Positions 1 to 64,000 of a DNA stretch of 64,000 bases are shown in pieces. Within the stretch, counting starts at the first letter, position 1; each line of letters starts with the position of its first letter. Where the stretch lies: positions 768,001 through 832,000 of the forward strand of contig CBDASK010000003.1 in assembly GCA_965199495.1 (NCBI GenBank), in the 5' to 3' direction. The notes under the pieces were generated by a model. That model ran no database searches and had not been told where the DNA came from. It worked only from the letters and a program-made list of their open reading frames with translations. The DNA is from Abditibacterium sp. (GTDB lineage: Bacteria > Armatimonadota > Abditibacteriia > Abditibacteriales > Abditibacteriaceae). A program made the translations under genes and the position numbers.

Positions 1-1
1 A

Positions 2-445
2 GCCACGGCGACGGCGCATTTCACGCGCGCCAGTGGTTTGATCGCGCTTTTCGACGCGCGCATCTGGGTCGGCGAGGATTGCGAAAGCGTCGCCGATTAT
101 TTTCGCTGGCGCCAAAGCGATGCCGCCAGATGCGCGCTCAACGGCTGGTGTTACTGGACGTTACGCGCACAAAATCAATCGGCGCGCGACGCCACGCGCG
201 CGCTCGACGGTTTATCGCAAAATAACAAAGAAAAATTACTGCGCGAAAATGGAATTGTTTGGGACGAACTGCCGTCGTGGCAACGGCGCGGCGCGGGCTG
301 GACGTGGGAAACCTTTGAAACTGCCGGTTTCGATCCGCAGCAGGGCGCCGTGGCTGCAACGCGGCGACGGTTAAAATTGAACGACGAATTGGCGTGGGGC
401 GCAGAGTATGGCAATTGGATCGAGCAATTAGCAGAAAACGGATAG
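2..445 (+). CDS. tRNA(His) guanylyltransferase Thg1-like protein, 5' partial
   Basis: Frame is open from the window edge; FDAR, DYFRWRQ.DA.R.ALN..CYW and W.ELP.WQRRG are typical of the Thg1/Thg1C family. Confidence 0.85.
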   Translation, partial: ATATAHFTRASGLIALFDARIWVGEDCESVADYFRWRQSDAARCALNGWCYWTLRAQNQSARDATRALDGLSQNNKEKLLRENGIVWDELPSWQRRGAGWTWETFETAGFDPQQGAVAATRRRLKLNDELAWGAEYGNWIEQLAENG

Positions 446-490
446 CAGGGGATATCTGCCATCCGTTTTCTATCTTTGCAACTCACCAAT

Positions 491-2011
491 TTACGAAACT
501 TCGGCTTCGCTCATCAACTGGGCTTCGATGGTGACTTCGTTGTCGCTGCGTTGCCCGGCCATCGCGATGGTCAGATAATTCTCTTTTCCGGTGTCGGAAT
601 CTTTGGCGAGAGCGGTGATGCGCCCGTTTTCGTCGCAGCGAAATTCGACGGCGAGTTTCGGCTGGCCTTTGGGTCGGCTCGGCGTGGTGTCGAGGTTGAA
701 CACGCCAATCGGGCCTTTGCCGTAACTGGCCGGGTCGCGCGATTCGCCTTCGTAGATGCGGATTTGAACCAAAGTTTGATTGTCAACTGTCGTGGTATAA
801 CCTTCGCGACGCTGCATCGTTGGCAGACGCGTCAGCGAGGGCACGATGTGATCGATAATCGGCGCGCCGTTGCTCATCACAGCCACGCCGAGGCTGTGGC
901 TGAGGACGTGGCCGACCGAAACTTCGGGCAACGCCTCATCTTTTAACAACAACGCGGCCTGCAAAGCGGCGCCTTTGGCGACGCATTCGTCGGGATCGTG
1001 CAACAACGGCTTTTTGCCCGATAAATCGGCCAACATCTTCATCACCATTGGCATACGCGACGAGCCGCCGACGCACAAAACTTCGTCAATATCGGGCCAG
1101 TCCAGACCGGCTTTAGCCAGCACGCTTTCCAGCAACAGTTCGGTGCGCGAAAGCAAATCGTGCGAGGCTTCTTCAAAGGCTTCACGCGAAACTTCGACTT
1201 TGACGGGAATCGCGCGGCCCTCGCCGTCGGGATTGGGAACTTTGAGCGAAATCGGCACGCTCTGGCGACCTGTCAATTGGCGCTTGGTCGCTTCGGCTTT
1301 GAGACGCAGTTCGGCTTCCAATTCGGCGTCGCCCTCGATGTCCACGCCGTGCGTTTCTTTGATGCTGTCAATGACGAAGCCCAAAATGCGGTCGTCGAAA
1401 TCTTTGCCGCCCAAACGATGATCGCCGCCCACCGAAAGCACGTTGAAGTCGTCGGGCAGACACTCCAGAATCGTCACGTCGAAGGTGCCGCCGCCCAAAT
1501 CGTAAACCAGAATTTTCTTATCAACGGCGCGCCGTTGAATGCCGTAAGAGAGCGCCGCCGCCGTCGGCTCGTTGATGATGCGCAGCACTTTGAGGCCCGC
1601 CAACTCGCCCGCTTCGAGCGTGGCGTGGCGCTGCTGCTCGGTAAAGTAGGCCGGAACCGTGATGACGGCTTCGGTGATGTCGTCGCCCAGTTCCATTGCG
1701 GCATCTTGCACGACTTTACGCAGAATCAGCGCCGAAACAAATTCGGGCGAATACTCGTTGCCGTTGATCTTGATGCGATAGCCGCTTTGCCCGATAAAAC
1801 GCTTGATGAACTGCACAACCGCTTCGGGATCGGTGATGGTGGACTGCAACGCGGTTTCGCCCACGGTGTAGTTCGGCGGGTCGAAGAAGACGACGGAAGG
1901 CGTTGTCACCTGTCCGTCCGCGTTTTTGAGAATGGCTGGTTTGCCATATTCGTCCACAACGGCGACTGCCGTATACGTGGTGCCCAGATCAATGCCGACC
2001 GCTTTGCCCAT
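491..2011 (-). CDS. Hsp70-family protein (non-canonical DnaK paralog, apparently lacking the C-terminal lid)
   Basis: GIDLGTT, AVITVPAYF, RIINEPTAAAL, YDLGGGTFD and VGGSSRMP motifs; only 506 aa. Confidence 0.9.
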   Translation of the reverse strand: MGKAVGIDLGTTYTAVAVVDEYGKPAILKNADGQVTTPSVVFFDPPNYTVGETALQSTITDPEAVVQFIKRFIGQSGYRIKINGNEYSPEFVSALILRKVVQDAAMELGDDITEAVITVPAYFTEQQRHATLEAGELAGLKVLRIINEPTAAALSYGIQRRAVDKKILVYDLGGGTFDVTILECLPDDFNVLSVGGDHRLGGKDFDDRILGFVIDSIKETHGVDIEGDAELEAELRLKAEATKRQLTGRQSVPISLKVPNPDGEGRAIPVKVEVSREAFEEASHDLLSRTELLLESVLAKAGLDWPDIDEVLCVGGSSRMPMVMKMLADLSGKKPLLHDPDECVAKGAALQAALLLKDEALPEVSVGHVLSHSLGVAVMSNGAPIIDHIVPSLTRLPTMQRREGYTTTVDNQTLVQIRIYEGESRDPASYGKGPIGVFNLDTTPSRPKGQPKLAVEFRCDENGRITALAKDSDTGKENYLTIAMAGQRSDNEVTIEAQLMSEAEVS

Positions 2012-2157
2012 GATTAATGTTTGTCTTCCTCTGTATTGCGGCCTTGTTTGAGCCGCAATTTCGGATGATGCCTAAAATTTTATCGCTTTTTGGCGCCTGT
2101 GTGTAGAAAAGTTGAGTTTTGAAGGCAAATATTTCTGACTTTTGCCCGTCCCGAATC

Positions 2158-2715
2158 TCAAAATTTGACCTGAACCGGGCCACGCGCCGCTTCATCTTCA
2201 ATTTCAAAATACTGTTCCAGCTTGAACCCGAACATATTGGCGACCACAACGGACGGAAACGTTTCGGTCGCCGTGTTCATCTCGCGCACGTTGGCGTTGT
2301 AAAAACGCCGCGCCTGTCCCAGACGATTTTCGGTTTCTTCCAACTGCGCCTGCAACTGGTTGAAGTTTGTGTTGGCCTTGAGATCGGGATACGCCTCGGA
2401 CAACGCGAAAACCTGACGCAAAGCGCCGCTCAATTGGGTTTCGGATTTCGCCTGTTCTTCGGGCGTGCCGGTGTTCGATGCCGCCGCGTTGCGCGCGCGA
2501 ATTACGGCGTCCAGCGTTTCTTTTTCGTGAGTCGCGTAACCTTTCACAGTTTCGACCAAGTTCGGAATCAAATCGTAACGACGGCGCAGTTCGGTATCAA
2601 TGGCCGACCACGATTCGCGCACGTTCTGGCGTAGTCTCACTAATTTGTTGTAGCTGGCCATGAAGAAGATGCCAATTAAGACCAGAACGCCGAGAAAAAC
2701 TAAAATGGGAATCAT
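2158..2715 (-). CDS. lemA: LemA family protein
   Basis: N-terminal TM helix, YN.LV.LR, RRYDLIPNLV, EAYPDLKAN, ARRFYN. Confidence 0.95.
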   Translation of the reverse strand: MIPILVFLGVLVLIGIFFMASYNKLVRLRQNVRESWSAIDTELRRRYDLIPNLVETVKGYATHEKETLDAVIRARNAAASNTGTPEEQAKSETQLSGALRQVFALSEAYPDLKANTNFNQLQAQLEETENRLGQARRFYNANVREMNTATETFPSVVVANMFGFKLEQYFEIEDEAARGPVQVKF

Positions 2716-62815: not shown

Positions 62816-62838
62816 TGCACCAAACTTCGCATTGTGTT

Positions 62839-62935
62839 CGTAGAGACACCGACTTGTCGTGTCTAAAAGGTCGAAAGTTTTTTCAGAGTCAAAGCAAATT
62901 CAACCTTTTAGACACGACAAGTCGGTGTCTCTACG
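62839..62935. repeat. GTAG-type REP pair, family D
   Basis: Arms match 21648-21747. Confidence 0.92.
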
Positions 62936-62949
62936 GACGCCTACAAAAT

Positions 62950-63954
62950 TTACTTCCATTTACGCTCGATGCGCCGCGCGAGCGGCGCCTTTTCGTTACC
63001 GCGCGATTCACTGCGACGATTTTCGCTATTCCGAGTTTCGCCCGCGCGTGCGCTATTGGCGCGACCATTATTGGAGCGGCTCATGCGCGGATGCGGCGTG
63101 GCTTCGCGCGCGGGTTTTTCCGGCTCGGCGTCTTCGGGAGATGCGCCGCGCGGATGCGGTTTGGGACGCGCGCGCGGGCGGCTTTTGGCTTTGAGTCCGG
63201 CTTCGGCGACGCGGCGCAGTTTTTTGACTTCGACCGGCAATAATTCGCGGTATTCGCCCGGCGCCATGCCTTCCAGTTCGACGCCAGCGAAATACACCCG
63301 GCGCAACGAAGAGGCGGCGTGGCCGACGGCTTCCATCATGCGACGCACCTGACGATTGCGGCCTTCGCGCAGCGTGATTTCCACCAGCGCATTTTTCTCG
63401 CGTTGCGCCAAAACGCGCGCGCGGCATGGCGCGGTCATGCCATCTTCGAGGCGCACGCCGCGCTCCAAATGTTCGATGGCTTCTTTGCCGACTTCTCCGC
63501 GCGCGCGCGCTTCATAAATCTTCTCGACACCATGCGAGGGATGCGTCAGCATATGCGTCAGCGTGCCGTCATCGGTGAGCAACAGCACGCCCGAAGTCTC
63601 GAAATCTAAGCGCCCGACCGAATGCAAATTGCCGAATTTATGCGGCAACAAGCTGTAAACCGTCGGGCGATTTTCTGGGTCGTCGCGCGTAGTGATGGTA
63701 TATTTCGGCTTGTGCAAAACGATGACAATCGGCGGTTTGTCTTCGAGTTTCAAAAGCGTGCCGTCAACCGTAATTTTGTCTTTTTCCGGGTCGGCTTTGA
63801 TGCCCTGCTCGGTCACAAAATGCCCGTTGACCGCCACGCGTCCGGCGGCGATGAGGTCTTCCGCCGCGCGCCGTGACGCCAGCCCTGCGCGCGCGATGAG
63901 CTTGGAAACGCGCTCGTTTTTCGCGTCCTCGGATGGTTGATTGGAATTGGGCAT
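62950..63954 (-). CDS. rluB: rRNA pseudouridine synthase (RsuA/RluB family)
   Basis: S4 domain (ASRRAAE.LI..GRV.VNG), VGRLD..TSG, EGRNRQVRRM. Confidence 0.85.
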   Translation of the reverse strand: MPNSNQPSEDAKNERVSKLIARAGLASRRAAEDLIAAGRVAVNGHFVTEQGIKADPEKDKITVDGTLLKLEDKPPIVIVLHKPKYTITTRDDPENRPTVYSLLPHKFGNLHSVGRLDFETSGVLLLTDDGTLTHMLTHPSHGVEKIYEARARGEVGKEAIEHLERGVRLEDGMTAPCRARVLAQREKNALVEITLREGRNRQVRRMMEAVGHAASSLRRVYFAGVELEGMAPGEYRELLPVEVKKLRRVAEAGLKAKSRPRARPKPHPRGASPEDAEPEKPAREATPHPRMSRSNNGRANSARAGETRNSENRRSESRGNEKAPLARRIERKWK

Positions 63955-64000
63955 AATGCTCTTAGTGTGAACGAAATCGCCAAAGGCGAGTTGAAGTGCA

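Follow-up and report, generated by a model that had tools for sequence, protein, structure and literature searches.

A dispersed non-palindromic octamer as a candidate DNA uptake or self-recognition word in three Abditibacterium species

Why should one short, non-palindromic word be written again and again into a bacterial chromosome, on both strands and largely within genes? The question is raised by a 64,000-nucleotide stretch of an Abditibacterium sp. genome (hereafter, the window; contig CBDASK010000003.1, positions 768,001–832,000, or G000:C3:768001-832000) and by the octamer CAGCCACG, which recurs along it. The genome that holds the window, G000, is a 4.81 Mb assembly of three contigs (95% complete); G004 and G011 denote two sister species, and other G-numbers denote relatives. 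An original prediction, made from the letters of the window, had put the octamer at about 50 copies (about 30 in one orientation and 20 in the other) where about 3 would be expected at roughly 58% GC, and had proposed sequence-specific DNA uptake or self-recognition. A pattern search recovers exactly 50 copies, of which the + strand reads CAGCCACG in 30 and CGTGGCTG in 20, and every coordinate that the prediction had listed is among them; 100 dinucleotide-preserving shuffles of the window give a mean of 2.27 copies (sd 1.57, max 6), in agreement with the predicted expectation. The GC content had been put slightly high (0.54–0.60 per 4 kb). The prediction also named several checks—Markov and codon-shuffle nulls, strand skew, depletion in acquired DNA, motif variants in relatives, and competence genes—and the outcomes of these are reported below. 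They leave us evenly divided on whether CAGCCACG, the core of a 13–16 nt, double-strand, DNA-level word, serves as a 'self' mark at DNA uptake.

The abundance of the word extends to the whole genome. G000 contains 3,091 copies of CAGCCACG (1,561/1,530 by strand), against 164–436 expected under Markov models of orders 1–4 (~240 at order 3), and no hexamer of the genome is more over-represented than AGCCAC. The sequence around the 3,083 chromosomal copies is informative: A occupies position -1 in 49% of copies, G position 0 in 58%, C position +10 in 82%, and G position +11 in 75%. These informative flanks indicate that the word is ~13 nt long in G000, with the form aG-CAGCCACG-sCG. The extended form RCAGCCACGNCG, which had been noted at copies in the window, is therefore real, borne out by the genome-wide flank frequencies.

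Genes were called with a home-made open reading frame (ORF) and codon-score caller, which yields 3,586 chromosomal genes (86% coding) and misses some overlapping genes (e.g., folP and thiE in the window). On this annotation, 2,858 chromosomal copies out of 3,083 (93%) lie wholly in coding and 221 wholly in non-coding DNA, giving word densities of 0.70 per kb in coding and 0.34 per kb in non-coding DNA. The 2,863 copies counted in coding sequences (CDS) compare with 275.4 +/- 6.9 (max 288) in 10 synonymous shuffles that keep both the protein and per-gene codon usage, and with 201 +/- 13 in 10 codon permutations; the enrichment thus holds against codon-shuffle as well as Markov nulls. All six frames are used in G000, the favored ones being xxC GTG GCT Gxx (1,213) and NCA GCC ACG (848). 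In each of the six, the word fills 26–53% of the places that are compatible with the encoded peptide, with per-frame observed-to-expected ratios of 3.3–24 at these places relative to codon usage. The codons drawn on include rare ones: GCA, GCT, and CCA make up 6%, 10%, and 11%, respectively, of their own amino acid's codons. The same picture is seen within the window, as had been predicted: 49 of the 50 copies lie in ORFs (including copy 349, in an ORF that leaves the window start), and the 48 copies in tabulated ORFs are spread over the six frames as 21, 15, 6, 2, 2, and 2. A peptide motif or codon artefact is ruled out by the synonymous shuffle and the compatible-site analysis; the claim that the signal acts at the level of DNA rather than peptide stands.

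Along the G000 chromosome the word shows no replichore polarity. Strand counts are near equal (1,558/1,525), density is ~65 copies per 100 kb throughout, and a cumulative orientation walk covers a range of 73, compared with a mean of 78 for permuted orientations (replichores are themselves poorly defined in G000, because GC skew and gene-orientation bias are very weak). Spacing is slightly more even than random (coefficient of variation of the gaps 0.93): there are 77 gaps of >5 kb where a Poisson model expects 117, and 149 gaps of <100 nt where 195 are expected.

Acquired DNA is another matter. When the count of the word is divided by that of 200 words of the same composition, the ratio is 11.1 for the chromosome, 1.3 for contig C1, and 2.1 for contig C2. 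Contig C1 (24.7 kb) is a mobilizable plasmid, encoding RepA, MobA/MobL, a coupling protein (T4CP), ArdC, a TacA-like antitoxin, and a resolvase. Contig C2 (64.6 kb) is a tailed-phage genome, with a Mu-like portal, an S49 protease, a 2,400-aa tape measure, and a baseplate hub. On the chromosome, the longest word deserts are mostly low in GC, and the largest are found at two places: (i) G000:C3:1115001-1195000, a low-GC, word-poor region with two large serine recombinases, a type I restriction-modification system (HsdM/HsdS), a TIR-domain protein, a KAP NTPase, a NucS-like nuclease, STAND NTPases, and a 1,981-aa DEAD/MZB/PLD-like helicase, which is likely an integrative defense island, and (ii) a CRISPR array of 131 repeats with a 66-nt period (G000:C3:2766475 to ~2775000). 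Across 2,783 genes, word density declines steadily as codon usage becomes more atypical: the most typical decile has 0.80 and the most atypical 0.47 copies per kb. Plasmid and phage are hence at background level, and deserts coincide with an island and a CRISPR array, as expected of a word depleted from acquired DNA.

The word is enriched only in G000, G004 (3,503 copies), and G011 (2,676 copies). No other genome joins these three among the 13 of the genus, the 31 of the class, or the 401 sampled from the phylum; in non-carrier genomes, its count lies near that of a reversed-word control. The three carriers are one another's closest relatives and form a subclade of one genus. Identity of G000 to G011 and G004, respectively, is 87% and 86% for LigA (other congeners, at most 75%), 97% and 91% for PilB (at most 74%), and 89% and 80% for the Tad secretin (at most 66%). 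We considered whether non-carriers might possess a dialect with a different core. No dispersed, hyper-abundant 8-mer was found in samples of four of the ten non-carriers (400 kb each of G009 and G012, 200 kb each of G010 and G006), the top words of G006 being two CRISPR arrays.

Variants of the motif do occur among the carriers, in the form of two flank dialects: aG-CAGCCACG-sCG in G000 and G011, and ACAc-CAGCCACG-TCC in G004. The logo of G011 (219 copies in 380 kb) equals that of G000, and the share of copies that read CAGCCACGNCG is 2,180/3,091 (71%) in G000, 1,838/2,676 (69%) in G011, and 739/3,503 (21%) in G004. The G004 logo is gACAc-CAGCCACG-TCC.a both over all copies and in 164 solitary copies; the presence of these flanks in solitary copies ties the flank difference to whatever drives the word, and not only to a repeat element. 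A search of viral contigs with the G004 15-mer returned 70 loci with one match each and none with several, which we take to be chance level, without a computed expectation.

How do the copies arise, and are they kept? Only 9 of 252 genic G000 sites are gapped in alignment to G004, and at the corresponding places G009 and G012, both non-carriers, have ordinary diverged sequence, mostly with 2–5 mismatches. The scarcity of gaps and the diverged sequence in G009 and G012 together indicate that copies arise by substitution in place. Between G000 and G011, which share a dialect, 98 of 199 sites are shared; at sites encoding the same peptide, 86 of 100 keep the word, compared with an identity of 49% for control 8-nt windows in which the peptide is likewise unchanged (9,141/18,722).

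Inverted pairs of the word at gene ends, as in the known uptake systems, were also found, most clearly in G004. In a 400 kb sample of this genome (84% coding), 108 copies are non-coding and 159 coding, which makes the density outside genes 3.6 times that within them, and 44 convergent pairs form ~60-nt hairpins with conserved arms of 22 nt and a mean folding energy of -42 kcal/mol; these hairpins hold 88 of the 267 copies. Twenty-five of the 44 lie within 80 nt past the stop codon of an ORF that is 120 aa or longer, a position taken by 19% of random positions. The feature is weaker in G000, where there are 88 inverted pairs genome-wide—176 of 3,083 copies in close inverted pairs—and most are inside called ORFs.

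The original prediction had assigned two window hairpins to the word, and both assignments need correction. The hairpin at 29919-29948 (GCCGCCGTG...CACGGCGGC, followed by a T-rich run) is terminator-like, as claimed, with the word copy straddling the junction of stem and loop, one half on either side. The stem at 13243-13264 (GCGCCACGC/GCGTGGCGC) is no copy of the word, the two having only GCCACG in common. Viewed for itself, the latter structure is a textbook bidirectional intrinsic terminator between convergent genes (13237-13270), laid out as an A-run, GCGCCACGC, a 6-nt loop, GCGTGGCGC, and a T-run. All copies in the window are listed in Table 1.

Table 1. The 50 exact copies of CAGCCACG in the window, with strand, reading frame, and gene or context where assigned
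Positions	Strand	Reading frame	Gene or context
349..356	-	antisense frame 2 (xxC GTG GCT Gxx)	ORF running past window start
880..887	+	antisense frame 2	Hsp70-like gene
3243..3250	+	sense frame 1 (NCA GCC ACG)	DUF2207 gene
4006..4013	-	antisense frame 2	
5218..5225	+	sense frame 2 (AGC CAC)	arginase-family gene
6917..6924	-	sense frame 1	RcpC/CpaB gene
8987..8994	+	antisense frame 2	Tad secretin gene
9303..9310	-	sense frame 1	Tad secretin gene
12141..12148	+	sense frame 1	
14679..14686	+	antisense frame 2	HD-domain gene
15613..15620	-		overlap between two candidate ORFs
16772..16779	+	antisense frame 2	folP-like gene
16942..16949	+	antisense frame 0 (CGT GGC TGN)	folP-like gene
17705..17712	+	antisense frame 1 (TGG CTG)	formate/nitrite transporter gene
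18848..18855	-	sense frame 1	
19781..19788	+	sense frame 2	ligA
20801..20808	+	sense frame 2	ligA
21581..21588	-	antisense frame 2	ligA
24974..24981	+	sense frame 2	
26898..26905	+	antisense frame 2	
28209..28216	-	sense frame 0 (CAG CCA CGN)	
29068..29075	+	antisense frame 2	
29925..29932	-		intergenic, part stem and part loop of terminator-like hairpin 29919-29948
30505..30512	+	sense frame 2	
32142..32149	-	antisense frame 0	
32570..32577	-	antisense frame 2	
32978..32985	+	sense frame 1	lpxB
33528..33535	-	antisense frame 2	lpxB
33956..33963	+	sense frame 1	lpxB
37433..37440	-	antisense frame 2	
38080..38087	+	sense frame 1	
40924..40931	-	sense frame 2	
42041..42048	+	antisense frame 2	
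44527..44534	-	sense frame 1	
45123..45130	+	antisense frame 2	
46279..46286	-	antisense frame 2	
47983..47990	+	antisense frame 2	
48082..48089	+	antisense frame 2	
48791..48798	+	antisense frame 1	
50438..50445	+	sense frame 1	
51554..51561	+	antisense frame 2	
52506..52513	-	sense frame 1	
54811..54818	-	antisense frame 2	
55334..55341	+	sense frame 0	
57283..57290	+	sense frame 1	
58417..58424	+	antisense frame 2	
59629..59636	+	antisense frame 2	
59891..59898	-	sense frame 1	
62287..62294	-	antisense frame 2	
62550..62557	+	sense frame 1	

The properties described above match those of the DNA uptake sequence (DUS) and the uptake signal sequence (USS) of proteobacteria, and do not match those of Chi or FtsK-orienting polar sequences (KOPS), of HIP1 or very short patch (VSP) repair, or of repetitive extragenic palindromic (REP) sequences and their associated tyrosine transposases (RAYTs) in the defining features examined. 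On the strength of these matches and mismatches, we hold the case to be finely balanced, by analogy, for CAGCCACG being a DUS/USS-like uptake or self-recognition word kept by molecular drive. Such a system would operate as follows: (i) the transformation machinery would have a component, at the surface or in the periplasm, that binds word-bearing DNA better than other DNA, (ii) word-bearing fragments from conspecifics would be taken up and recombined more often, (iii) molecular drive arising from this uptake bias would fix point substitutions giving rise to the word at any place where the protein can accommodate them, and would hold them there, and (iv) DNA arriving by other routes (plasmid, phage, integrative island) would stay unmarked. 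That the word is read at uptake, and by a component of that machinery, we infer from the likeness to the known systems.

Among described systems, a word of 13–16 nt with graded flanks and dialects is the signature of DUS and USS, which also form inverted repeats in terminators, according to Helsem et al. 2025 (bioRxiv 10.1101/2025.10.24.684340). The same source gives sequence-specific recognition of self-DNA before uptake as described for two proteobacterial families only. The uptake version of our reading, which we hold to be as likely as not, would add to these two a third system of self-recognition at DNA uptake, independently evolved and the first beyond the Proteobacteria.

Does G000 encode the machinery that uptake would call for? 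ComEC, DprA, and ComEA were searched for in G000 alone among carriers and congeners, and all three are encoded: ComEC as an 862-aa frame, DprA, and ComEA as a protein with transmembrane, SLBB-like, and HhH parts. There are eight T2SSE matches in seven open frames and 47 prepilin N-termini. A type IV pilus cluster (PilB-orf-PilT-PilC-PilD plus four pilin-like genes) lies at C3:861-873 kb, 30 kb from the window. All four of its pilins occur wherever a congener locus extends far enough to include them, loci cut by contig ends (G005, G007, G011) being without only the distal pilins, and the 618-aa cluster pilin is only 50.5% identical between G000 and G011, which share a dialect. A Tad/Flp locus lies within the window itself (5843-14498) and encodes RcpC/CpaB, a 910-aa secretin with BON and pilus N-terminal domains, and a TadZ-like response-regulator/ParA ATPase. 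The predicted presence of competence genes is thus borne out with ComEC, DprA, ComEA, and the pilus cluster; no ComP-like reader was identified in the pilus loci compared. More broadly, the in silico checks that were run agree with the proposal of uptake or self-recognition, up to the reader protein, for which no candidate emerged from these loci.

Several observations weigh against uptake as the explanation. Firstly, the machinery does not track the word. Synteny of the type IV pilus cluster extends to all nine congener loci fetched, from carriers or not, and a gain of the cluster is ruled out on this basis; competence genes are widespread, with matches in 10–13 of 14 control genomes; and the window's Tad secretin is matched at full or near full length in 13 of 13 genus genomes, of which three carry the word. 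No ComP-like or carrier-specific reader was found when pilus loci and Tad secretins were compared. Since the pilus cluster and the secretin occur in carriers and non-carriers alike, no gene gain explains the limit to three species. Secondly, close pairs (<=40 nt) are overwhelmingly inverted, 88 versus 5 direct in G000 and 46 versus 5 in G004; this excess is outside a simple uptake model, and could reflect a dimeric reader or hairpin biology. Thirdly, the denser occurrence of the word in coding DNA in G000 is the reverse of the situation in G004, and of that in Neisseria too. Fourthly, G000 and G004 share 48 of 243 ungapped sites, compared with 47 of 228 for control 8-mers, and 27 of 78 at same-peptide sites, compared with 42% for the control. 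Sharing no better than the control indicates that much of the word load is lineage-specific; set beside the figures for G000 and G011, the silent-site retention points to a word actively maintained within a dialect and turning over between dialects. Finally, recent exchange between G000 and G011 was not seen: none of 237 genes is near-identical, and identity at four-fold sites has a median of 0.70 and a maximum of 0.87.

The Tad pilus, to which the original prediction had tentatively linked the word, finds no support as a carrier-specific apparatus, given the distribution of its secretin. Tad-pilus-dependent transformation has been reported for Micrococcus luteus (PMC4322843), and by analogy an involvement is conceivable here; nothing ties Tad to the carriers.

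The alternative that survives best is that the word forms a site array for an intracellular, sequence-specific DNA-binding system, a chromosomal self-mark under density selection rather than a product of uptake bias. We regard this as an unlikely account that nevertheless deserves serious attention. Its variants, which are collectively of the same doubtful standing, are a Chi-like signal for a nuclease-helicase other than RecBCD, a defense system that spares marked DNA, or a protein that organizes the nucleoid. An intracellular reader of self and non-self might, more tentatively than the uptake system described above, have been gained or re-tuned in the ancestor of the three species, treating unmarked DNA as foreign, with its specificity having since drifted into two dialects. 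Restriction of the word to the chromosome, its even spacing, and its upkeep at silent sites fit this account equally well; the competence gene set does not distinguish carriers from non-carriers; and the 88:5 preponderance of inverted close pairs suits a dimeric binder. There is also a protein to spare. G000 has two PDDEXK_1 matches, a 299-aa ORF and a 1,421-aa protein with an N-terminal PD-(D/E)XK nuclease and a C-terminal superfamily 1 (SF1; AAA_11/AAA_12) helicase, and the latter has no assigned role. Set against this, nothing links a candidate reader to the three carriers, the positions of sites change between G000 and G004 as those of neutral sequence do, Chi and KOPS are polar where CAGCCACG is not, and a 13–16 nt word with graded flanks and dialects is the DUS/USS signature among described systems (10.1101/2025.10.24.684340). 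We note separately that a bacterial type IB topoisomerase gene adjoins the gene for the 1,421-aa nuclease-helicase (G000:C3:4111365-4117038).

Could the word instead be the product of a sequence-specific repair or mutation bias acting on all resident DNA, either like VSP repair or like HIP1 together with a methyltransferase? The origin of copies by point substitution in place and the saturation of compatible sites in every frame are what such a bias would leave behind, and G000 encodes both C5 and N6 methyltransferase genes. The enzymes, however, do not follow the word. Vsr scores above its family cut-off in one of three carriers (G004, on a small contig), with a 24.5-bit sub-threshold fragment in G000 and none in G011, and C5 methyltransferases are encoded by the non-carrier G012 as well; no carrier-specific Vsr or C5 methyltransferase was found. 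Moreover, the co-resident plasmid and phage are unmarked, a non-palindromic specificity of 13–16 nt exceeds the known contexts of methyltransferases or Vsr, and one-off variants of the C-to-T type show no special depletion when set beside transversions (raw counts, without expectations). We consider this explanation improbable.

It is very improbable, and distinctly less credible than a repair bias, that the copies descend from a REP- or miniature inverted-repeat transposable element (MITE)-like hairpin—a REP doublet forming a hairpin, or REPIN—moved by a RAYT-type Y1 transposase, with solitary copies as its decayed halves. The 88 of 267 G004 copies in conserved ~60-nt hairpins with 22-nt arms speak for such an origin, as does the presence of Y1_Tnp genes, but these genes occur in all five genomes tested, regardless of the word. 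In G000, 2,858 of 3,083 copies are inside called CDS and arose without insertions or deletions; the one RAYT-like G004 gene inspected is flanked by a different repeat; and solitary coding copies in G004 carry the flanks of the hairpin arms, which fits a single reader better than decay. With 93% of copies coding, Y1_Tnp present everywhere tested, and another repeat at the RAYT-like gene, a RAYT/REP origin is unsupported.

A classical Chi or KOPS/AIMS (architecture imparting sequence) site, read by RecBCD/AddAB or FtsK, was already disfavored and can be set aside as barely credible: the word does resemble Chi of E. coli in being a non-palindromic octamer found more often than expected, and is about as dense or denser, but RecC was not found in G000 (95% complete), neither of its two PDDEXK_1 matches has AddA/AddB architecture, so that no AddAB-type protein was found there, there is no chromosomal orientation bias (with the replichores poorly defined by very weak GC skew and gene-orientation bias), and informative flanks stretch the word to 13–16 nt.

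The search also brought up other dispersed repeats. Two places in the window (21650-21745 and 62840-62935) hold a ~100-nt intergenic element, just past gene ends, with ~30-nt terminal inverted repeats (CGTAGAGACACCGACTTGTCGTGTCTAAAA ... its complement) and a variable center. The 9-mer GTAGAGACA has 171 chromosomal copies, most of them paired at a distance of 85–110 nt, and is nearly absent from the G009 and G012 samples; this pairing implies roughly 85 elements, which are either a MITE/REPIN-like element or a giant terminator family. A second dispersed family, TTGTCATTCTGAGCG...ACGAACGAAGTCGAAGAATCCA (e.g., G000:C3 107790-107900), has a 15-mer core present in 89 copies in G000 and in none of the G004, G009, and G012 samples. 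In G004, a Y1-transposase (RAYT-like) gene sits between two copies of its own ~50-nt repeat (GGCGAATAAATTCGCAGCCAC/TAAAAA..TGTCGGCCTGCGCCGACACGAAGA; G004:C8:313500-314400). This repeat contains GCAGCCAC, that is, seven letters of the word with a 5' flank of the G000 type, an overlap that may be coincidence.

In the literature, as far as the texts were available, we found neither a report of CAGCCACG as a genomic signal, the listed matches to the word being primers or sequence unrelated to it, nor a paper that treats DNA uptake or over-represented words in the Abditibacteriota, nor anything on this signal under uptake sequences beyond the two known families. The first cultivated representative of this phylum was described only recently (PMC7154957). 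The carriers belong to a barely cultured group of soil bacteria, with ~3,000 copies per chromosome and, in G000, a plasmid and a phage at background level only. If CAGCCACG is an uptake signal, such a signal would have originated independently in a phylum with a recently cultivated representative, with an onset that can be dated within one genus and two dialects already present. The birth of an uptake specificity and its receptor would then become tractable, by comparing 3 carriers with 10 non-carrying congeners, and the word would be a practical marker for telling native from acquired DNA and for binning metagenomic contigs. If it is not an uptake signal, a genome-wide reader of another sort is implied.

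How does CAGCCACG compare with the words already known to mark chromosomes? Chi (RecBCD/AddAB) and KOPS/AIMS (FtsK) are, like it, over-represented, non-palindromic octamers that mark the chromosome. They are polar relative to replication; CAGCCACG is without polarity, is longer in its informative extent, and is found in a genome in which neither RecC nor AddAB was detected. HIP1 of cyanobacteria is a palindromic, hyper-abundant octamer linked to methyltransferase sites. It resembles CAGCCACG in being written through genes by substitution. CAGCCACG differs in its lack of palindromic symmetry, and neither a methyltransferase nor a Vsr confined to the carriers was found. The word CGTTAGGC, proposed as hyper-abundant in Gemmatimonadaceae, is a different word in a different phylum, and the link proposed for it to integron attC ends is not seen for CAGCCACG.

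Closer are the two uptake systems. The Neisseriaceae DUS, which has dialects and is read by the minor pilin ComP (PMC3630211, Frye et al. 2013; PMC2397512, Treangen et al. 2008), differs from CAGCCACG in sequence and phylum, in having a reader of a kind not found here, and in marking a whole family rather than three species within one genus. The 93% of copies that are coding in G000, and the 176 of 3,083 in close inverted pairs, are further differences, and an uptake bias is, for CAGCCACG, a prediction from genome sequence. In common, both are short non-palindromic words with thousands of copies on both strands, lying within genes in permissive frames and as intergenic inverted pairs at gene ends; both are depleted from acquired DNA and lineage-specific, with a conserved core and variable flanks, in genomes that encode a type IV pilus and Com genes.

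The Pasteurellaceae USS comes in Hin and Apl types (PMC7811141, PMC12616744). Its reader is only predicted, and none was found for CAGCCACG either; CAGCCACG is GC-rich and without the AT-rich, helically phased flanks of the USS. In other respects the likeness is close: copies that are mostly coding, a strong preference for frames that yield common peptides, graded flanking information around a core, even spacing, and two types with a common core.

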